Positions 5,928 through 47,545 of a stretch of DNA of 64,000 nucleotides are shown piece after piece. Under the pieces are notes generated by a model. It was not told where the DNA came from and searched no databases. It was given only the letters and a program-made list of their open reading frames with translations. The translations under genes and the position numbers were made by a program. Every line of letters begins with the position of its first letter. Positions within the stretch are counted from its first letter, which is position 1. Location of the stretch: contig JAGXOK010000001.1 of NCBI GenBank assembly GCA_023659935.1, positions 9,569 through 73,568 of the forward strand, in the 5' to 3' direction. This stretch comes from Candidatus Aenigmarchaeota archaeon LH_S6. Lineage in GTDB: Archaea > Aenigmatarchaeota > Aenigmatarchaeia > QMZS01.

Positions 5928-6647
5928 ATGGGAATTGCAACTAAATTAAAAGAATATGTTGAGGATGGTGAAGTCTTAACCTATGAAATTATTAAAGATT
6001 TCAATCTCACCTCTGAAACCTCCCTGAAAGTTATTCTTTCAAATATGATTAAAATGAAAATCATTTTATCTCCTAAAAAAGGAGTTTATGTGTCTAAAAA
6101 TTTTAATCCTTTTAAAATTGCCCCCATCTTAGAGCCAGGATATATTACATTAACCACAGCATTTTATCATTACAATTTCATCTCCGAATATCCTTTCAAT
6201 ATATATGTTGGGGCTAAAAAATGGGCGGAGTATAGTTTGGGCAATTATAAATTTATTTATTTCCCCACCACAAATTTCAAATTTATTGACTTGGAAAGTA
6301 AAATTGCATTACCGGAAAAAGCTATATATGATTCTTTAAAATATTATAAAATTGTCCCTTTCAAGAAAACATTAGAAGCAATCCATCATGCAAGAAAGGT
6401 AAATTGGGATAATTTCTTGGCACTACTTTCTGAAGAAAAATCTTCTTTTTTACAAAGAACAGGTTATTTATTTTCAATTCTACCAAAAAAAAATAAAAAG
6501 ATTAAAGAAGTAATAATTTTCTGCAAACAAAACATGAATAAAGAATCTAAAATTTATCTTTTTGGAAGAAGTAAAGGAACTTTTATAGAAGAATGGAATA
6601 TTATAGATAATATTAGGGAAGAGGAATTATTATCATGGTGGAAATAG
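5928..6647 (+). CDS. AbiEi-like antitoxin / transcriptional regulator (type IV TA)
   Basis: Same size class as AbiEi and has a KGVY motif. It overlaps the downstream AbiEii-like gene by 13 nt. Confidence 0.4.
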   Translation: MGIATKLKEYVEDGEVLTYEIIKDFNLTSETSLKVILSNMIKMKIILSPKKGVYVSKNFNPFKIAPILEPGYITLTTAFYHYNFISEYPFNIYVGAKKWAEYSLGNYKFIYFPTTNFKFIDLESKIALPEKAIYDSLKYYKIVPFKKTLEAIHHARKVNWDNFLALLSEEKSSFLQRTGYLFSILPKKNKKIKEVIIFCKQNMNKESKIYLFGRSKGTFIEEWNIIDNIREEELLSWWK

Positions 6648-7318
6648 TTTTTAATAAAGAAGAAATAAAAAAATATTCAGCAGAGGCTGGTTTAGGATTC
6701 AATTTTATAGTAAAGGAAGCTTTTTTATTTTCAATCCTGGATGTTTTGAGAGATTATGATATTGTGTTGAAAGGAGGCACCGCAATAAACAAAATATTCC
6801 TTAAAGATAAACAAAGATTTTCAGAGGATTTGGATTTTGATACGAATTTAGGTCTAAAAGAAATAACGCAGATATTGCAAAAAGAAAAATTGAAAATAAA
6901 GAAGAGATATTATACAAAACATGCTCATGGTTTTGAAATTGCTTACACCTATGAAAACATAAAAGATGTTATTAGACTGGATTTTTCAATGCCAATAAAA
7001 GGTAATTGTTCTATTTCTACTTTAAAATCTGAGTTTTTACCTTTATCTATAAGATTTAGAGCTTATACTTTGAAGGAACTAATAAAACAGAAAGAAACAA
7101 CTTTCTTAAATAGAAAGGAGTGGAAAGATTTATATGATCTCTTCTGGATTTCAAAATTTTACCCAGACCAATTTAAAATTTCGGACAAAAAAAAATTTAT
7201 AGAAATTTTAAGTAAAATCAAAGTTCCAAAAATTGCAAATGCCTATATACCATTAAAAAATAGAATTGAGGGGAGGATTATAATTGAAGAATTTTTAAAG
7301 ACACTAACCAAAAAATAA
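6635..7318 (+). CDS. AbiEii-family nucleotidyltransferase toxin (DUF1814)
   Basis: Motif LKGGTAINK...RFSEDLDFD is the GGT plus RxSxDxD signature of AbiEii NTases. Confidence 0.6.
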   Translation: MVEIVFNKEEIKKYSAEAGLGFNFIVKEAFLFSILDVLRDYDIVLKGGTAINKIFLKDKQRFSEDLDFDTNLGLKEITQILQKEKLKIKKRYYTKHAHGFEIAYTYENIKDVIRLDFSMPIKGNCSISTLKSEFLPLSIRFRAYTLKELIKQKETTFLNRKEWKDLYDLFWISKFYPDQFKISDKKKFIEILSKIKVPKIANAYIPLKNRIEGRIIIEEFLKTLTKK

Positions 7319-7685
7319 TAAAAATGTTTCAGCTGTGGCAATCCTGCTAATCTTATACTTAACCAAAGGCAAGAAAACTCCCGATTTAAATCGTGTAGCT
7401 CAATTGTCCTTCAATACTTTTAAAACATAATTAAATATGGACATACAGGTCCTGTATTGTCTTCTGGGTATATCTTGGAAGACGGGGTTGCTGACCCTAC
7501 AATAGTGAAATAAGGCGTCTGAAAAAAGTGACTCAGCCCTAAACTAAAGCGTGTCAGATCAAAACCTCTGCTATGGTAAGTTTTGTTAGCGACTTTAGAA
7601 CCTCGTTAGCCTTCTGTATTCAAAACAGTGTTTTGGTTAAGGAAGCTCCTGAATTTATTCAGGGAGAGGAAGTCACTGTACAAAA

Positions 7686-13082: not shown

Positions 13083-13349
13083 ATAATAAGTTAAATAATT
13101 AATTTTTAAGAGTAATTTAATATCCCTGATATAATTGATAATAATAAGAAATAATATTGCAAAATTCTGTAAGGGATAGGGTCCAAAAAAAGAGCTTTCT
13201 TGATAAAAATAAAATAGATGAACTTTCTTTGGAGGATAAAGATTTAATCAAAGATGAGATTATCTATTAAAAAAACTCAAGCAAAAACAGAGAGATAATT
13301 TTGTTATCTGTGATTCAGATCCTGTAAATTCTTAAAAGTTATTATTAGT

Positions 13350-14543
13350 TTACTCTAATTTCTTTTTTAGATAAATTCTCTCAATTCTTTCCATTTTTTT
13401 GAATTTATCCAGTTTTTTAATTACTTCTTGGGGCAATGTTTCAAAAACTCTTGACAATTTAAAAGTATCTAATCTAGATAATTCGTTCCACAGGTTATTT
13501 TCTCTTATTATTTTTTCAACTTGTTCTCTTTTTTCATCATTCTTCCTAGGAAAAGTTGCAACATCTTTCACCCAGATTCTTGAGATACAACCAGAGCCAT
13601 TAACAGAAGTCACTCCTTCTCTTTTACTATATTTTATAAGAGCCTCTTTTACCTGCTCAATTTCAGAATCAATTTTATTAAGAAATCTTTCCCTCTCATT
13701 TTTAAGTTTTACATATTTATTCACCAAATTCACTCCTGGTTCCCCAAGGAATTTGTTTGATTCAAGAGATTCTGTTTTTACCAAGTGTTTCTGTTCTGGG
13801 CATATATCCCTAAACTCGCACCAGTTGCAAAGATTTGAAACTTTTTGCTTAAATTCTTTTTCTTTTTCTATTCTTTTTATTAATTCTATTGTGTCTGATT
13901 TTAATTTTTCAAGTTCTCTCTCTGTTTTTTCTATAGTAACCTCCTTGTCTGCGGACAGAAAATGCCAAACTAATTTTACTCTTTTTGCATCCTGATAATT
14001 TTTAAGAACTGCAATTGCATAAAGAGCAAGCTGCCTGTCCCTATGCAAATATTCTTCTCGAGGAAGTTCAAAACTTGTTTTGTAATCATGAATTTCATAT
14101 TCTCCTTTTCCTGTTGACATAAGTCTGTCAATGAATCCCTGTAATTTGTATTTTCCTTCCAGGTCAAGGGAAATAATTACTTTTTTCTCAAGACCTATTA
14201 TTTTCCCTTTATCAAATGGATAATATCTATTATAATAATCCTTAAGATATTGCTCGCCCATTTTCTTGAAGTTCTCCTTGGTATATTCTTTTTTTACAAT
14301 CAGGATTGAATCATTCCAGTTTTTATTCCACAACCTGTTGTAAAATTGTAGTATTTCTTTAAGAGAATTTTCTTTCTTAAATTTAATATCTTTGTACACT
14401 TTTTTAAGAGTCATATGAACCATATTTCCCATAAATGCCTCCACACCCTGCTGAATCTTTGGCTCTAATCTATCTATATATTTGAATTTAAATTTCAGTG
14501 GACACTGCTCAAAACAGGAGAGCCTTGAATGTGAATAAATCAT
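13350..14543 (-). CDS. PD-(D/E)XK nuclease, Cas4/AddB-like with Fe-S cysteine cluster and K/E-rich C-terminal extension
   Basis: N-terminal YSHSRLSCFEQCPLKFKFKYI. The pattern D...EIHDYKTS. QLALYAI (the QxxxY motif). C-terminal CNWCEFRDICP. Confidence 0.6.
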   Translation of the reverse strand: MIYSHSRLSCFEQCPLKFKFKYIDRLEPKIQQGVEAFMGNMVHMTLKKVYKDIKFKKENSLKEILQFYNRLWNKNWNDSILIVKKEYTKENFKKMGEQYLKDYYNRYYPFDKGKIIGLEKKVIISLDLEGKYKLQGFIDRLMSTGKGEYEIHDYKTSFELPREEYLHRDRQLALYAIAVLKNYQDAKRVKLVWHFLSADKEVTIEKTERELEKLKSDTIELIKRIEKEKEFKQKVSNLCNWCEFRDICPEQKHLVKTESLESNKFLGEPGVNLVNKYVKLKNERERFLNKIDSEIEQVKEALIKYSKREGVTSVNGSGCISRIWVKDVATFPRKNDEKREQVEKIIRENNLWNELSRLDTFKLSRVFETLPQEVIKKLDKFKKMERIERIYLKKKLE

Positions 14544-14622: not shown

Positions 14623-15210
14623 CTATTTTAGAAATTTATCTTTAAATTTTGATATATTGAATTTTAATTTTCGATAAAAAAACAAAAATTCCTGGGTTTC
14701 CTTTTTTATGTAATCAAGAATTTTTTTGTATTCTCTATCCTTATACCATGCAGGAATTATTGCTCCTGAATGTTCCTTTCCTGTAAATTTATCCAGGCTA
14801 CAACCTTTAAAATTAAAACCATTCATTGCCAGACATATTGGTTTGAGATCAATTACAGGCAAATTATGATAAATAAACCAATTATTATAATTAATTCCAT
14901 AGATTTCTGCCCTATGCTTGAATATACCCAAATCAAAACAAACATTAAAACCAACAGGAATAAATTTCCATTTGTTTTCTGGGCATAGAATTTTTGAGAA
15001 TTTTTCTATAATCTCTTTTTCAGAGGACTCCCATTCCTTTAAGATTTTTAAATCTCCGACAGGCCCTCCATACTTGCCGATTTCCTGGTATTGAATTGTT
15101 ATAATCTTACTTTTTTCTGGGTCAAATGGAACCCTCTCCTTCCTTCTTAATTTTTCCACAATTTCTGGATCAGTATATCCTATCTCTATATCAAGATAAT
15201 ATTCAGACAT
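14623..15210 (-). CDS. RNase H-like (DEDD-type, YprB/COG3359-like) exonuclease
   Basis: YLDIEIGY (Exo I, DxE) and FNVCFDLGIF (Exo II). Overlaps the upstream paralog by 8 nt. Confidence 0.4.
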   Translation of the reverse strand: MSEYYLDIEIGYTDPEIVEKLRRKERVPFDPEKSKIITIQYQEIGKYGGPVGDLKILKEWESSEKEIIEKFSKILCPENKWKFIPVGFNVCFDLGIFKHRAEIYGINYNNWFIYHNLPVIDLKPICLAMNGFNFKGCSLDKFTGKEHSGAIIPAWYKDREYKKILDYIKKETQEFLFFYRKLKFNISKFKDKFLK

Positions 15211-23002: not shown

Positions 23003-23497
23003 TTAAACTTTGTTACCTAATTTTATAGGTTCCATAAAAACACTTCCATTTAAATGAAGTAAAGGAGTAAATTTTTCTTCTCTAATCCATTCTTTTAGAA
23101 CTTTTCCAACAATTAAAAAATGATCTCCATATTCCTTTATTTCAGCAATTTTACATTCAAAAGAGATTGGACACTTAATTACTGGTGGAGAAACAAGTTT
23201 TGATTTTTCTGTAATCAAATTTGCTTTTTTAAATTTGTCTAATTCTCTACCAGAATAAGTTCCGCAGATTATTGCCTCTTCTTTCATTTCTTTACCTAAT
23301 AAATTTAGAGTTAGTTCTTTTCTCTCTTTCAAATTCTTAAAAGTATATCTTTTTGGAGAAACTGAGAAGGCTATATACTTCGGCTCAAAACTAACAGGCA
23401 TTAAAAAACTTGCTGTCATAACATTCGCTTTACCCTCCTTACTTAGAGTTACAATTAAACCAACCATTCTTGGAAATATTTGTTCTGAGATTCTCAT
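23003..23497 (-). CDS. flavin reductase-like FMN-binding split-barrel protein
   Basis: MTASF..PVSFEP..IAFSV, NLLG, AIICGTYSGRELDKF and FECKI all match the flavin reductase domain pattern. Confidence 0.55.
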   Translation of the reverse strand: MRISEQIFPRMVGLIVTLSKEGKANVMTASFLMPVSFEPKYIAFSVSPKRYTFKNLKERKELTLNLLGKEMKEEAIICGTYSGRELDKFKKANLITEKSKLVSPPVIKCPISFECKIAEIKEYGDHFLIVGKVLKEWIREEKFTPLLHLNGSVFMEPIKLGNKV

Positions 23498-23539: not shown

Positions 23540-23828
23540 GTTTCAATCCTTATTTCATTCGTTTTCTTTGAAAACGATGCACCGTTTTTCTTTGAAAAAC
23601 GAGTGTCTTGGACCTATCTCTAAAACGCAACCCTTTTCAAGGTAATTGTTGAAAAAGGTCTGCACCCTAAAAACTAAAATAACAGAATTATCACCCTGTT
23701 TTGGCTTGAGCCTTTTTAATTTATAATACCCATAAAAGGCTCATTTAATCCTTATTTCATTCGTTTTCTTCGAAAACGATGCACCGTTTTTCTTTGAAAA
23801 ACGAGTGTCATGGACCTATTTCTAAAAC
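23540..23828 (-). CRISPR. satellite repeat-X-repeat unit: two 85-87-nt expanded CRISPR repeats (each with a 52-nt twin-palindrome insertion) flanking a 117-nt X element
   Basis: 23540-23626 and 23744-23828 are the normal 37-nt repeat, with cattcgttttctttgaaaacgatgcaccgtttttctttgaaaaacgagtgtc inserted between cttattt and ctggacc. 23627-23743 is 95 percent identical to 25894-26009. Confidence 0.55.
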
Positions 23829-23881
23829 TTGAAAGACTTAAATATCTATTATATCATTAATAATAAATGGTGTGATGTAAT

Positions 23882-24406
23882 ATGTTTCTCAAAAAATACC
23901 TAATTCGAAAGATAGTAGAATACGATTTACTTCCTTGCTCTATTAGATGGAAAAAATCCGTTAGTGGTATTGGAAGAATGTATGCAGATATTATGAAAAT
24001 GATGAAAGAAAATTACAGTTCTGAGGGGGTTAAAAGATTAAGTAAAGTTATGTATAACATTGGTTTTACTCAAGCATCTGAGATATTAGAATTATTAGGA
24101 TTGGAAAGGAACTTGGAAGGTTGCGCATATGCCTTATTAGCTATGCATAGGATTTTCGGAATTAAAAGCAAGATCGTTAAAAAAGAAAGTAATAAAATTA
24201 TAATCCATGTAACAGACTGCTGTTGGGGTAGAAAGAAGAGGGGTTGGACTCCCCAAACATGTGCTTCAATTGGTCAATATGAAACGGGTTTAGTAAAGGG
24301 AATACTGCCTGATGCTACCCCTATATATCCTAAAAGGCATACTCTTGGACATGATGTATGCGAACTTGTTCTCACTCTAAAAGAGGAAGGTGATAAGGAT
24401 GAATGA
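23882..24406 (+). CDS. hypothetical Cys-containing protein (possibly V4R-like ligand-binding domain)
   Basis: ORF with C..C motifs. The family assignment is weak. Confidence 0.25.
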   Translation: MFLKKYLIRKIVEYDLLPCSIRWKKSVSGIGRMYADIMKMMKENYSSEGVKRLSKVMYNIGFTQASEILELLGLERNLEGCAYALLAMHRIFGIKSKIVKKESNKIIIHVTDCCWGRKKRGWTPQTCASIGQYETGLVKGILPDATPIYPKRHTLGHDVCELVLTLKEEGDKDE

Positions 24407-24926
24407 AATGGTAATACTTGTAGACGAAAACGATAGGCAAATTGGAGTGGAAGATAAAATAAACGCTCATCAAGGAGAAGGAAAATTGCATAGGGCATTG
24501 TCAATATTTATATTCAACCCCAAAGGAAAATTGCTAATTCAAAGAAGAGCTAAAACAAAATATCATTGTGGTGGTCTATGGACTAATACTTGTTGTTCTC
24601 ATCCAAGACCAGAAGAATCTTTAGAGCAAGCAGCTCATAGAAGATTAAAAGAAGAAATGGGCTTCGATTGTGATTTTAAAGAAGTGTTTTCGTTTATATA
24701 TAAAGCGAATTTTGATAATGGTCTCACAGAATGGGAATTTGATCATGTTCTTATTGGAGAGTTTGACGGAGAGATAAAAGCAAACCCAAAAGAGGTTGCT
24801 GATTGGAAATGGGTCGGTCTTAATGAATTAAAAGAAGACATTAAAGAAAATCCGAATGAATACACACAGTGGTTTAAAATTGCTATTGACAGAACTCTTT
24901 CTTATTATACCCAGTATAAGGAGTGA
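24390..24926 (+). CDS. idi: isopentenyl-diphosphate delta-isomerase type 1 (Nudix fold)
   Basis: GKLHRALSIFIFN, LLIQRRA..K, GGLWTNTCCSHP and the Nudix-like EE..GF. Confidence 0.7.
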   Translation: MIRMNEMVILVDENDRQIGVEDKINAHQGEGKLHRALSIFIFNPKGKLLIQRRAKTKYHCGGLWTNTCCSHPRPEESLEQAAHRRLKEEMGFDCDFKEVFSFIYKANFDNGLTEWEFDHVLIGEFDGEIKANPKEVADWKWVGLNELKEDIKENPNEYTQWFKIAIDRTLSYYTQYKE

Positions 24927-24948
24927 TATAGAATGGTTGATGTGTTAA

Positions 24949-25145
24949 TTTTTACGCGAGCCCATAGCTGCAGAGTATGTTGCTGGATATTTAAAATTAA
25001 AAGGATTATCTGTTGATGTAATACAGCATACAACAGAAGATGATAATGTTATATTGAATTTAATTAGGAAAGAAAAACTAAAAATACTGGGCATATCTAT
25101 TCATAGTACCCATATTTTTCCTTCAGCTGTATCTCCAGGTTGGTA
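24949..25145 (+). pseudogene. N-terminal fragment of a B12-binding-domain/radical-SAM-type gene, frameshifted and truncated
   Basis: Frame B reads EPIAAEYVAGYLKLKGLSVDVIQHTTEDDNVILNLIRKEKLKILGISIHSTHIFPSAV, which looks like a B12-binding N-terminal domain. The ATG (MVDVLIFTRAH) is in another frame. The gene ends at the CRISPR trailer. Confidence 0.35.
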
Positions 25146-25265
25146 AGGTACACTAACTTCAAATAAATTATGTAATCCCAGAAATAAAAGAGAAATTGTA
25201 ACTAAAATAACAAATCCTAAAATTACCTTATTCTCTACAATAAATTTTCTCAATTCCATAATTCA

Positions 25266-26117
25266 GTATTTTAATCCTTATTTTACTGGATCTATTTCTA
25301 AAACTGCCATATCTCCTACTACATCATCAGAACTCTCCGTTGCGTTTCAATCCTTATTTTCATGGACCTATCTCTAAAACAGAAAATTTAGAAAATCTGG
25401 CTGAAGAGTATGGTATGTTTCAATCCTTATTTTCATGGACCTATCTCTAAAACTTTCTTTTAGGTCTATGTTTCCCCCCATTCCAGCATGTTTCAATCCT
25501 TATTTTACTGGACCTATCTCTAAAACATTAGATACAAGGGAGAGAAAGCTTGAAGAATCTAAAGTTTCAATCCTTATTTTACTGGACCTATCTCTAAAAC
25601 AGGAATGCGCTCCAGAATCTATCATTACTTTTCCTTGTTTCAATCCTTATTTTACTGGACCTATTTCTAAAACACAAAGGACTTAGAGGGAACATAAAAT
25701 ACAAAACCCTGTTTCAATCCTTATTTTCGTGGATCTATTTCTAAAACTAACTCTGGAGGACGGGTTCAACGCAACTTCTGATGGTTTCAATCCTTATTTT
25801 ACTGGATCTATCTCTAAAACGAGACAGGGAAAAACCAACAACCAACACCATATCACGTTTCAATCCTTATTTTACTGGATCTATCTCTAAAACGCAACCC
25901 TTTTCAAGGTAATTGTTGAAAAAGGTCTGCACCTCAAAAACTAAAATAACAGAGTTATCACCCTGTTTTGGCTTTAGCCTTTTTAATTTACAATACCCAT
26001 AAAAGGCTCATTCAATCCTTATTTTACTGGACCTATCTCTAAAACTGTATTTTCAAGAAGGAAAAACCTTATCTCTTCTCGTTTCAATCCTTATTTTACT
26101 GGACCTATCTCTAAAAC
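25266..26117 (-). CRISPR. CRISPR array of 11 repeats; 37-nt repeat GTTTCAATCCTTATTTTACTGGACCTATCTCTAAAAC on the + strand; 35-39-nt spacers
   Basis: Repeats at 25266 (degenerate), 25344, 25417, 25490, 25564, 25637, 25711, 25784, 25857, 26010 (5'-truncated) and 26081. The reverse complement starts GTTTTAGAG and ends ATTGAAAC (a typical 8-nt 5' handle), so it is probably transcribed from the minus strand. That places the leader at 26118-26677 beside cas6 and makes the degenerate 25266 repeat the terminal one. Confidence 0.85.
25894..26009. repeat. 116-nt X element inside the CRISPR array between repeats 9 and 10 (second copy at 23627-23743)
   Basis: Too long to be a spacer. It holds two hairpins (ccttttcaa..ttgaaaagg and agccttttta..taaaaggct). 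The adjacent repeat is 5'-truncated. Confidence 0.7.
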
Positions 26118-26550
26118 AGCACCGAAATCCTTTGATTTTGGCTGTTCTTGGCGATTTTAATTCACCAATTTCGTCATATATATTATTTATCATTTTCTTT
26201 ATAAAGGAGTGCTATTGTACACATATTCGCCTGTAACAACAATCAACACACCTCATATTATAACTTGTTTTTTTTTAGGATAGAAACCCTTTTGGATTAT
26301 ATTTAGGATTTCATTTATCATCCCGATTGCCCCAATCATAAATTATAATCACTTATTTTTATAACTTCTCTAAAATCTCAAGTAATTCCTTATCTTCTTT
26401 CATCATTTTTTCTATCTGTTTATCTGCAATTTCCTTGGAAACTTTTAGTTCTTTTATACCTTTATCTGTTAATACATGTCTTATATAATACTTCCCTTCA
26501 ACTTTTTTCAATTCTCTCATAAATATAATTTGTAAGTTTATTTAAATCAA

Positions 26551-26664
26551 TTTGGGTGTTGGCCTTTTGATAGATTTAACCAATAAAGGCTGACTCTTTT
26601 TTTATTGACCAATTTTGTAGTTTGGGTGTTGGCCTTTTGATAGATTTAACCAATAAAGGCTGAC
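26551..26664. repeat. tandem duplicated 44-bp hairpin unit (period 70 bp) in the CRISPR leader / cas6 3' region, carrying a TTAACCAA loop motif
   Basis: TTTGGGTGTTGGCCTTTTGATAGATTTAACCAATAAAGGCTGAC occurs at 26551-26594 and 26621-26664. Confidence 0.8.
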
Positions 26665-26677
26665 AAGGGTTGCATAT

Positions 26678-27328
26678 TTAAACTGATTTAACTGTTCCAA
26701 AACCCTGTGAAACTCCTTTACCCAATCCAATAAATTCAGGTAATTTAAAATTGATTTTAAAATCACCAGTAAAACCAATCATAGGTACTTCTTTATATAC
26801 AACCGAGACAGGTTTAACTTTTGTCTTGACTTTTAATTCAGACAAAACAACATATTCAAATGCTTTTGCAACAGAAAGAATATTTCCAATCAGGACCTTG
26901 TGCAATAGCAATGTCTGTTCTTTTTTATTTAAACTATTATACTCTTTATAATTCTTCTCATTCAAAGCTATCCATGGTATGACAAACCTATATTTTCTCT
27001 CTTTTTCACTAAAACAAAAGTTCTGATATTTTTCTATTGTCTTTTTTTCTACAATTTTGTAACTGCTTGTTCCCAATTTAAGGTTGTCAAACTCATTCGA
27101 AATATTTTTTAAAGCAGTTGCACCCTCATTAATACCTAAAATAACTGGAGTGCCTTCTATTACTTTGTATTGTACTAGTGGATAAGTATATAGATAATTT
27201 TTCTCCAGATGATGATGTAAGATTGGTTCATCTCTAAATTTATTCCCAACAAAACCGCGGAGAAATGTTCCGGATTCTTTAACAGGTTTATTTGTTTTCA
27301 GAATTAAAGTATAAATTAAAAGTTCCAT
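26678..27328 (-). CDS. cas6: CRISPR-associated endoribonuclease Cas6
   Basis: Adjacent to the array on the inferred leader side. C-terminal glycine-rich loop GLGKGVSQGFGTV. RRM-like size of 216 aa. Confidence 0.65.
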   Translation of the reverse strand: MELLIYTLILKTNKPVKESGTFLRGFVGNKFRDEPILHHHLEKNYLYTYPLVQYKVIEGTPVILGINEGATALKNISNEFDNLKLGTSSYKIVEKKTIEKYQNFCFSEKERKYRFVIPWIALNEKNYKEYNSLNKKEQTLLLHKVLIGNILSVAKAFEYVVLSELKVKTKVKPVSVVYKEVPMIGFTGDFKINFKLPEFIGLGKGVSQGFGTVKSV

Positions 27329-29937: not shown

Positions 29938-30085
29938 AAAACTCTTTTTAGGCACCAAAGTCTTCTAACTTAGTTTTCATATTTTTGGAATAAATTCTTT
30001 CTTCCCTCTATTTAAGTTTTTTTCCATATGCCTCACTGTCTAAATTTGTTTTGCCTTTCTTAAATAGACCAGTGAGGCTTTAGTC

Positions 30086-30221
30086 AGCCACGGGAGGGAC
30101 TTGAACCCCCAACCTGCGGTTTACAAAACCGCTGCTCCACCAGTTACCCCAACCTTTTATTTTCCTATCGACGCTTTTTGATGGACTTAACCAATAAAAG
30201 GGTTGATTGAGCCACCGTGGC
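30086..30221 (-). tRNA. tRNA-Thr (anticodon TGT) with a ~63-nt D-loop intron (about 30144-30206)
   Basis: Minus strand: gccacgg-tg-gctc-aa[intron]ctggtg-gagc-a-gcggt-tttgtaa-accgc-aggtt-ggggg-ttcaagt-ccctc-ccgtggc-t. The acceptor stem pairs perfectly and the discriminator is U, as is common for Thr. The intron contains the TTAACCAATAAAAGG motif on the opposite strand. Confidence 0.6.
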
Positions 30222-37188: not shown

Positions 37189-37600
37189 AATATGTTATGA
37201 AGAAAGGTTTAACAATGGGTGTACTATTTTGGGTACTTATATTTTTTATAGTACTTATTGTTTTTGTCTCTCTTGCCCTGTGGAGTAAAGGTTTTGGTTT
37301 AAATATTTTAAGTGCTTTATTAGGCTCAGTACCTTAGTATGGGGAATATAGGTTTGATAATATTATATGTTGTTTTGGGTTTAGTGTTTATTCTCCTTGT
37401 ATTTTCTGTTGGTTCAGCCCTCTCTTTAATATGAAAAGAGTTTTTTTTTGCTTGAGCCTTTTTAGTAAACTTAACCAACAAAAGGCTTATATGAAAGGAA
37501 TAACTATCGATATGATTGCGAGTATTATAATTTTATTTATGGTTTTTATAATCCTTACTGTAATTTTTATAGCAATGGGTAATGCAATACCATCCCCAAC

Positions 37601-47007: not shown

Positions 47008-47545
47008 ATGAAAGGAATCAGTTTGACTATAAATTCTGTAATTGTAATTACTCTTGCAATACTGGTTCTTGTTTTCTTAGGGTACATGTTCATCACAGGA
47101 ACAAATCCTTTTGTTTCAGTAGGATATGAAAGTGCTCTAAATAATGGTTGTAAAACTTATCTACAAAGTAATCAGTCAGTAGAAAGTATTATGGTTGGGG
47201 ATATAACTAAGGATGGAAACCCGGATAATTTACTTACTGCCTGCAGGTCGTATTACTCAAATGAAAGTATGGAAGCAGAGGGATGTGAGCAGAAATGTAG
47301 AGACAGATTTCCTTTTGGTTCTACTAGTTAAATCTAGTGGTGAGAGCCTTCCTTCATCTTTTGTTGGAATAGGTAAATGCTGTGATAAAGGAAGTGAAGG
47401 TAATACAGAATGCTCAACAGGATTATGGTGTAGAAAAAAAGATTATATTTATAGCAGATGTAGAAAAAGTTGTGCCAAAGGAATTTGTGTAAAACAAAGT
47501 GGAGTATCTTCTTGCCATCCTAAGGAAGAGTGTAATTATAACTGA
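47008..47545 (+). pseudogene. type IV pilin-like protein, apparently split by a frameshift near 47300
   Basis: MKGISLTINSVIVITLAILVLVF is a class III signal peptide. The Cys-rich C-terminal part (GKCCDKGSEGNTEC...CHPKEECNYN) continues in another frame and resembles the C-terminus of 45879-46295. Confidence 0.35.

Follow-up and report, generated by a model that had tools for sequence, protein, structure and literature searches.

A probable trailer remnant of a Cas6b-type CRISPR array, interrupted by twin-hairpin insertion elements, in an uncultured Aenigmarchaeota archaeon

The genome of Candidatus Aenigmarchaeota archaeon LH_S6 carries, within a 64,000-nt stretch (contig JAGXOK010000001.1, positions 9,569 to 73,568; hereafter the window, from whose first letter all coordinates are counted unless a sister locus is named), a small satellite at 23540-23828 beside a CRISPR array. 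The satellite has the order repeat-X-repeat, in which two CRISPR repeats, each expanded by the same short element E, flank a 116-nt sequence named X. We consider it to be, probably, what is left of the trailer end of a type I-B-like array, in which small hairpin insertion elements settled before recombination duplicated it. The initial annotation, made from the letters of the stretch, had already described this arrangement; its observation is confirmed, and its interpretation is supported in part after comparison with the metagenome-assembled genomes (MAGs) of sister strains. The analysis covered the 64-kb window together with sister loci (numbered with the prefix L), which were reached through Cas6b homologues and protein-cluster members of sister MAGs. 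Throughout, the sense of the CRISPR RNA (crRNA) corresponds to the minus strand of the window, of which the G+C content is 32% and the gene content archaeal, including PolD DP2, TFIIB, RtcB and archaeal ribosomal proteins.

All parts of the satellite are read on the minus strand. The flavin reductase gene (23003-23497, minus strand) stands next to the repeat-X-repeat unit not only in the window but also in the sister loci L075/L076 and L081, a conserved neighbourhood, and 42 nt upstream of its ATG lies the 87-nt expanded repeat R'a (23540-23626), a 37-nt repeat, GTTTTAGAGATAGGTCCAAGA|AAATAAGGATTGAAAC, split by the 50-nt copy E1 (23556-23605). It is followed by X1 (116 nt, 23627-23742) and by the second 87-nt expanded repeat R'b (23742-23828), a 37-nt repeat of the 'TGA' variant split by the 50-nt copy E2 (23758-23807), which differs from E1 by 1 nt in the loop of its second hairpin. 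It had been thought that the 3′ handle ATTGAAAC is intact in both repeats; this holds for R'a alone, while R'b has the degenerate 3′ end …GGATTAAAT|G and thus ends ATTAAAT(G).

Element E reads, in the minus sense, 5′-CACTCG-hp1(GTTTTTC/GAAAAAC)-GGTGCATC-hp2(GTTTTC/GAAAAC)-GAATG-3′, where hp1 and hp2 are the two hairpins. Deletion of 23556-23605 and 23758-23807 gives repeats of exactly 37 nt with nothing duplicated and with boundaries that cannot be shifted, and across the point of insertion the restored R'b (GTTTTAGAAATAGGTCCATGAAAATAAGGATT…) agrees with the main array's 'TGA' variant. The earlier statement that both satellite repeats carry the same insertion stands, but the insert is 50 nt long and not 52 nt as proposed. 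The 85-nt core common to R'a and R'b is 95% identical, and within the window the 42-nt twin-palindrome core occurs in these two repeats only, with no match in any shuffle.

The same element was found in two sister strains, in sequences that have no relation to CRISPR repeats. In L075 (GCA_023659955.1), a 148-nt composite with the same termini (15017-15164 of that locus), beginning CACTCG-GTTTTTCtttGAAAAAC-GGTGCATC and ending TTTTGCgaaGCAAAA-TGAATG, interrupts an rve transposase pseudogene that carries further lesions, and its excision restores …GFGVFKR-K-TAENCL… as intact homologues have it. In L083 (GCA_023659895.1), a 48-nt copy, CACTCG-TTTTGCgaaGCAAAA-CGGTGCATC-GTTGtgaagCAAC-GAATG, amounts to exactly 16 extra in-frame codons (HSFCEAKRCIVVKQRM) in an IS5-like transposase, and these codons are missing from all five aligned homologues, one of them 93% identical. 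Hence E has been met in three unrelated sequences of three strains, namely the loop region of the CRISPR repeat here and two different transposase genes in the sisters. The motifs CACTCG, GGTGCATCG and GAATG are conserved among the copies, and the stems vary with compensation (GTTTTTC/GAAAAAC vs. GTTTTGC/GCAAAAC). Every copy is predicted to fold as two abutting hairpins (z-scores of -3.0 to -3.7) lying 4-6 nt from both ends, and the five E sequences, two of which are near-identical, align poorly in hairpin 2. As for the flanks, they read GA^AAA, GA^AAA and CA^AAT, or ATTT, GTTT and GATT on the other strand before the element, so that at these three independent sites E is seen, by comparison of filled and restored sequences, to insert at (G/C)A^AA(A/T) without target duplication. 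We also observed that the L075 composite forms a chain of six short hairpins and holds a second complete small unit, CACTCG-TCGttcCGA-TGGTGCATC-GTTGCtccGCAAC-TAATG, which suggests either nesting or modular growth of E elements.

Given the fact that the same element sits in rve and IS5-like transposase genes, E appears to be a small non-autonomous insertion element that is not specific for CRISPR. The idea of a mobile element targeting repeats, raised in the initial annotation, thus survives as far as mobility and insertion are concerned, but not in its repeat specificity. A fuzzy motif search of about 176 kb, comprising the window and sister loci, and then of L085-L087, returned only the known copies of E, save for a look-alike within cas6b (27094-27152, CACTCC…GGTGCAAC…CGAATG). 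This candidate has no hairpins, the length of Cas6b is normal, and about 0.08 such matches are expected per window, so it was judged to be a chance match.

The array next to the satellite provides the context in which the unit can be understood. The main array (25268-26117, minus strand, leader side at high coordinates) has 11 repeats of 37 nt, GTTTTAGAGATAGGTCCAGTAAAATAAGGATTGAAAC in the minus-strand sense, with spacers of 35-39 nt, one of which is replaced by X2 (116 nt, 25894-26009, minus strand), and the 'TGA' variant is represented by repeats 2 and 3. Its repeats are matched by Rfam CRISPR-DR7 on the minus strand, and they end in the 8-nt tag AUUGAAAC; it is repeats of 37 nt with this ending that Cas6b processes in subtype I-B (PMC3479195). 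A cas6b gene (26678-27328, minus strand; Pfam matches at E=5e-39 and 7e-29) lies close by on the leader side of the array, and the window yielded no further cas gene. Matches to repeat halves number 13, vs. 0.15-0.24 expected by chance, and are confined to the array and the satellite, save one match of a 16-nt half with two mismatches at 47205-47220. When 40 window open reading frames (ORFs), mostly the larger ones, were scanned against Pfam, no cas8b, cas7, cas5, cas3, cas1 or cas2 and no Cascade or other effector gene was found among them. Judged by its repeats, tag and cas6b, the locus is a type I-B-like (Cas6b-type) CRISPR array whose effector and adaptation genes were not found in the window. 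In sister strains, cas1 and a Fic-domain gene stand directly after cas6b, and a short cas8b (Cas_TM1802) fragment is fused in frame to a CRISPR repeat in L077 and in L075; at the position of this fragment the contig end of L085 cuts through an ORF (the stretches concerned are L077 10654-12361, L085 8839-10780 and L075 9194-9367). Between strains of about 96-97% identity, this region varies in the presence of cas1 and Fic, in the reduction of cas8b to a fragment and in hairpin copy number. The window strain seems to have lost cas1, Fic and the cas8b remnant, and we read this as a I-B locus decaying step by step.

Comparison of array structure in sister genomes, which had been proposed as a check, changes the interpretation, as it showed the degenerate repeat-X-repeat unit at the array trailer in L075, L076 and L081. 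In crRNA sense, L081 (GCA_023658955.1) shows at least six repeats, a degenerate last repeat (…GGATTGAAT), X, a truncated repeat that ends at GTTTTAGAAATAGGTCCA, and the promoter of the flavin reductase gene, and in L075/L076 the degenerate repeat-X-repeat unit is directly fused to the cas8b remnant. The repeat downstream of X is truncated after GGTCCA in all three loci, within 2-3 nt of the insertion point of E, and these repeats, which stand at the orthologous position, contain neither a Cas6 site nor E. A fourth locus, L084, has the window-type leader, four repeats and a degenerate last repeat, which is followed only by the first hairpin of X (its first 45 nt) and then by unrelated DNA. The degenerate 3′ end of the repeat upstream of X is conserved in all sister strains. 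Repeat 10 of the main array (26009/10-26045), which borders X2 on one side as repeat 9 (25857-25893) does on the other, was formerly described as 5′-truncated; read in crRNA sense, it is this degenerate 3′ end (…GAAT) that it displays. By this comparison, the "degenerate repeat - X - repeat" is an old array trailer unit, situated beside flavin reductase in three sister MAGs, and it would thus not be a leader, nor an RNA gene that has been newly assembled. It was also noticed that in L084 a stretch after the terminal repeat and hairpin (7283-7330) resembles the 3′ half of a tRNA (…TTCGGGTTCAAATCCCGGCCAGCGCA), and this could be an att-site remnant of an integrated element.

X itself was described earlier as sitting in the place of a spacer at 25894-26009 and again in the satellite, which was borne out, with X1 (23627-23742) and X2 identical at 110 of 115 aligned positions (~96%). 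Two hairpins had been reported for it; the fold gives three in crRNA sense, which in X1 are A (23708-23742, with a tail at 23698-23707), B (23681-23700) and C (23631-23658). X opens with 45 nt (GAGCCTTTT…AAAAGGCTCAAGCCAAAA) that are a copy from a dispersed hairpin family, hereafter family A. Members of it were detected with nhmmer at 37442-37487, 30172-30201 and 26551-26660, within X1 and X2, and as a tandem arrangement in L077, all strong copies of the window being on the minus strand. Copies of family A are thus present also at non-CRISPR sites. Occurrence of X at many such sites had been named as a finding that would speak for a plain miniature inverted-repeat transposable element (MITE); the 45-nt module is indeed dispersed, but whole X was seen only in CRISPR context in the sequence examined. 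X at least partly is, on these matches, built of dispersed hairpin modules.

Several observations on the modules of X may be added. Two perfect 44-nt direct repeats, each with a family-A hairpin, follow closely on the cas6b stop codon, at 26551-26594 and 26621-26664 (26551-26664 together, minus strand); one full copy is present in L084 and one with a shortened loop in L075, and in L077 cas1 takes their place. The family-A hairpin at 37442-37487 lies in a divergent intergenic region and ends 2 nt before the start of a 37-amino acid (aa) membrane-like ORF on the other strand, and two tandem copies of this hairpin are found in L077 (698-807). A tRNA-Thr(UGU) gene at 30083-30221 (minus strand), missed by ARAGORN and matched partially by Rfam, is recognised after removal of about 58-66 nt from the D-loop region; its intervening sequence is non-canonical and holds the family-A-like stretch 30172-30201, and the same arrangement exists in the sisters L001, L075 and L077. 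Family A, as seen in X, downstream of cas6b and in the intervening sequence of tRNA-Thr, might represent an intron-like mobile module. In decayed form, the central part of X (hairpin B and the tail of hairpin A) recurs as a 42-nt stretch with 86% identity at 13266-13307, downstream of a gene for a PD-(D/E)XK / Cas4-like nuclease (13350-14543, minus strand). Hairpin C of X seems to resemble the right half of E (GGTGCA, a hairpin and G..G), and by eye X shows a weak resemblance to a series of spacer, decayed repeat and spacer (ATTTTAG…AGGTGCAG…TTGAAAAG). Scans of viral contigs with pieces of X and E gave as their sole match a chance 21-mer inside a phage coding region; a scan of genome contigs with TTTTKGCTTKAGCCTTTTTA gave 69 loci, all of them chance matches limited to the pattern, the source species evidently being absent from the representatives; and a scan of metagenome contigs with AAGCCAAAACAGGGTGATAA gave 2 chance matches.

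The two copies of X belong to a longer duplicated unit of 149 nt, 23609-23757 vs. 25876-26024 (both on the minus strand, 95% identical), which takes in 18 nt from one flanking repeat and about 15 nt from the other. These direct repeats bracket 2,267 nt that contain nine repeats with their spacers, a 52-aa ORF (about 25100-25258, minus strand), a NUDIX hydrolase gene (24390-24926, plus strand) and a gene for a 174-aa protein (23882-24406, plus strand), the last having no close relative on record and no other member in its cluster. The sisters L075 and L081 have a single copy of the unit and none of the 2.27-kb segment at that place, and accordingly the DNA between satellite and main array (23829-25267) is absent at this position in both. 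Because 149-nt direct repeats bracket a segment that is absent at this site in L075 and L081, the two X copies would indicate the footprint of homologous recombination across the repeat-X-repeat unit. Recombination between arrays, one of the explanations originally put forward, is in this sense supported in spirit. Among four X copies compared, the window pair share one state vs. the sisters, and each copy has private changes, by which the event is not polarised.

For the nature of E, comparison with known small elements of archaea is instructive. The PATEs (palindrome-associated transposable elements) of Haloquadratum are non-coding, carry palindromes near their termini, lack inverted terminal repeats and leave their target unduplicated, and IS605-type transposons of this genus collapse to terminal-only PATEs of 52 bp, such as those derived from HqIRS46 and ISHwa23 in Haloquadratum walsbyi, whose insertions are still strain-specific (PMC3119063). 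E is likewise about 50 bp long and non-coding (its copies of 48-50 nt and the 148-nt composite are too short for a transposase), consists of two similar near-terminal palindromes fused together, makes no target duplication, differs in its insertions between strains and often hits other mobile elements. It differs in that its hairpins are only 4-6 nt from both ends, in that its host is another, uncultured archaeal lineage, and in the unusual site of insertion inside CRISPR repeats; moreover, PATEs have a short conserved targeting oligonucleotide of 4-6 nt 5′ of the element, and the flanks of E are known from three sites only. With every PATE feature tested fitting, E appears to work like a terminal-only PATE, of which it is a candidate member. 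The SMR-A/B repeats of Haloquadratum, which are non-coding, 80-110 bp long, without target duplication and prefer mobile elements as targets (PMC3119063), share with E the shortness, the lack of coding capacity and of target duplication, and the location in mobile elements; they differ by having conspicuous inverted terminal repeats that are not linked to palindromes, the ends of E being alike only through its two hairpins. E was also considered as a classical MITE and rejected, as no insertion site shows target duplication. Classical MITEs have terminal inverted repeats and produce target duplications, and E does neither. In archaea and bacteria, insertion sequences (IS) and MITEs are found inserted in CRISPR arrays and in cas loci, and the present case resembles such insertions as a mobile element interrupting a CRISPR locus that is losing its cas genes; what sets it apart is that E is only 50 nt long, interrupts the repeat midway while its two halves stay intact, and is carried by both members of a two-repeat unit.

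From these comparisons a plausible course of events can be drawn. An IS200/IS605-type (Y1/HUH) transposase may have moved E in trans in the form of single-stranded DNA, as would be the case for the 52-bp terminal-only PATEs of haloarchaea. The two copies of E in the satellite may stem from a single insertion that was later converted or duplicated, or else the same preferred site was hit twice. Homologous recombination between the 149-nt repeat-X-repeat stretches would then have integrated or duplicated the 2.27-kb segment here, or have deleted it in the sisters. The resulting unit would be without a dedicated RNA function, and any transcript of it a by-product.

A number of points weigh against this scenario. 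Neither an IS200/IS605 TnpA/TnpB gene nor a full-length parent with the ends of E was seen in the window and about 150 kb of sister loci, and Y1_Tnp and OrfB_IS605 have no match among the window ORFs or in the gene tables of the sister loci. All three contexts of E are in the sense orientation of the host transcript, which a DNA transposon need not show. E occupies both satellite repeats and none of the 11 repeats of the main array, though two of these offer the identical target TGA^AAAT, and simple site preference does not explain this distribution; the target preference itself is derived from few cases, that is, three independent insertion contexts. The dispersed family accounts for the first 45 nt of X, and the remaining ~70 nt are of unexplained origin. 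The inner 197 nt of the satellite (23583-23779) rest on one assembly, and a look-up of the 36-aa ORF spanning X1 and R'a gave no record.

Other explanations deserve to be weighed against the same evidence. The unit R'b-X-R'a might be a functional mini-array from which Cas6b cuts a long structured crRNA-like RNA, CreA-like or another regulator, with E as a structural module. This would be in line with the retention of cas6b 3 kb away though no other cas gene was found in the window, with the tag of R'a, AUUGAAAC, which 37-nt I-B repeats yield through Cas6b (PMC3479195), with the predicted fold, where the repeat halves still pair (GGUCC/GGAUU) around the twin hairpins and leave E in the loop, and with an AT-rich divergent promoter region seen by eye upstream. 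In L075, L076 and L081, however, the downstream repeat has no Cas6 site and the upstream tag is degenerate everywhere, so two-sided processing of X by Cas6b is not conserved; hairpin C of L075 has an uncompensated mismatch and an extra base, no Cascade or effector genes were found in the window, and the matches of X obtained by BLAST of the satellite against the window are other copies of the hairpin family only, none of them a promoter. We therefore hold a mini-array to be improbable. CreTA systems of type I-B haloarchaea employ a crRNA-resembling antitoxin RNA flanked by degenerate repeats, in which the spacer-like part is partly complementary to the promoter of the toxin gene and Cascade is present. 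Similarly, the window has, close to its I-B-type locus, a unit of two repeats that enclose an atypical "spacer"; it differs in that no adjacent toxin or matching promoter for X was found in the window, Cascade genes were not found there, the unit is not processable in the sisters, and X is a 116-nt sequence built of dispersed hairpin modules. A crRNA-like regulatory or CreTA-like role of the X RNA, to which the initial annotation had pointed, is unlikely as far as the sequences can tell. Since E lies on the sense strand in all three hosts, falls in the loop of the Cas6b repeat and leaves one transposase frame open, one could also think of an action of E at the RNA level, with transcripts either losing or tolerating it, or of 87-nt repeats that Cas6b continues to cut, R'b-X-R'a then giving a long structured crRNA-like RNA composed of mobile hairpin modules, but we regard this as very unlikely. 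A related thought is that E is an archaeal intron, so that expanded repeats and interrupted transposases are repaired in RNA. Its sense orientation in the three host transcripts would agree with this, as would the restoration of host sequences by its exact removal, the RtcB gene of the window and the non-canonical intervening sequence of tRNA-Thr. The bulge-helix-bulge of archaeal introns consists of two 3-nt bulges separated by a 4-bp helix and spans both boundaries. No such motif was found by hand (three registers at the R'b boundaries; by eye for R'a and the rve host), the sequences beside E are not the same in the different hosts, and the rve gene is a pseudogene with other lesions, and we consider an intron the least probable of all these explanations, extremely unlikely.

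The remaining alternatives concern the target of E, the identity of X and the assembly. It is conceivable that E is a CRISPR-directed element that targets repeats, either as a sabotage of immunity or as a homing element, as its identical position in both of the two satellite repeats might suggest; its presence in the rve and IS5-like transposase genes, its absence from all 11 main-array repeats including those with the identical target, and the orthologous sister repeats without E make this hardly credible. X might instead be a CRISPR leader, or a leader duplicated inside the array, with a promoter for the downstream repeats, the window then having two tandem arrays: X always comes after a degenerate, terminal-looking repeat and before a repeat 5′ end, and by eye it is AT-rich with TATA-like runs. 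However, L081 and L075 have only a truncated repeat after X, which places X at the trailer, the terminal repeat of L084 is followed by the hairpin-A part only, and X has no similarity to the true leader (26118-26350, minus strand), which the main array shares with L084, so a leader is highly improbable. With respect to the assembly, the satellite could be a chimera of co-occurring strains or of repeated k-mers, given that several strains about 96-97% identical are present in the same sample series, that Logan contigs break inside E and that the inner 197 nt are backed by one assembly only. Both outer junctions, composed of E, a repeat half and unique flank, were nevertheless reproduced by Logan contigs from SRR14170883, one (L004) covering E, the 5′ half of the repeat and the 174-aa gene and the other (L082) covering E, the 3′ half of the repeat and the flavin reductase gene. 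Because two contigs independently reproduce two junctions, the insert should be no artefact of one assembly. Moreover, X1 is distinct, with 5 differences from X2 and further ones from the sister X copies, and E is shorter than a read. The earlier suspicion of an assembly error is thereby countered for the outer junctions and persists for the inner 197 nt, and we attach very little probability to a chimera. The trailer remnant colonised by E and duplicated by recombination is thus the explanation that we prefer.

Two further features of the region are recorded here. Between cas6b and the leader, a 53-aa ORF (MRELKKVEGKYYIRHVLTDKG…, 26351-26512, minus strand) is kept in every sister locus despite differing gene content, and it has no Pfam match on record. 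Within 5928-7318, a gene for an AbiEii-type toxin (6635-7318) comes after an unannotated 239-aa ORF, and the two are possibly a type IV toxin-antitoxin pair.

The locus illustrates that a design-like CRISPR oddity can arise from ordinary processes, namely colonisation by a miniature hairpin element, recombination of array units and decay of cas genes, and CRISPR finders will miss or mis-call such loci. The natural split repeat, with 50 nt between the halves of a Cas6b repeat, could serve to test the recognition of an unstructured 37-nt substrate by Cas6b. The finding also documents a mobile element of about 50 nt in an uncultured archaeal lineage, with exact boundaries and three independent insertion sites.

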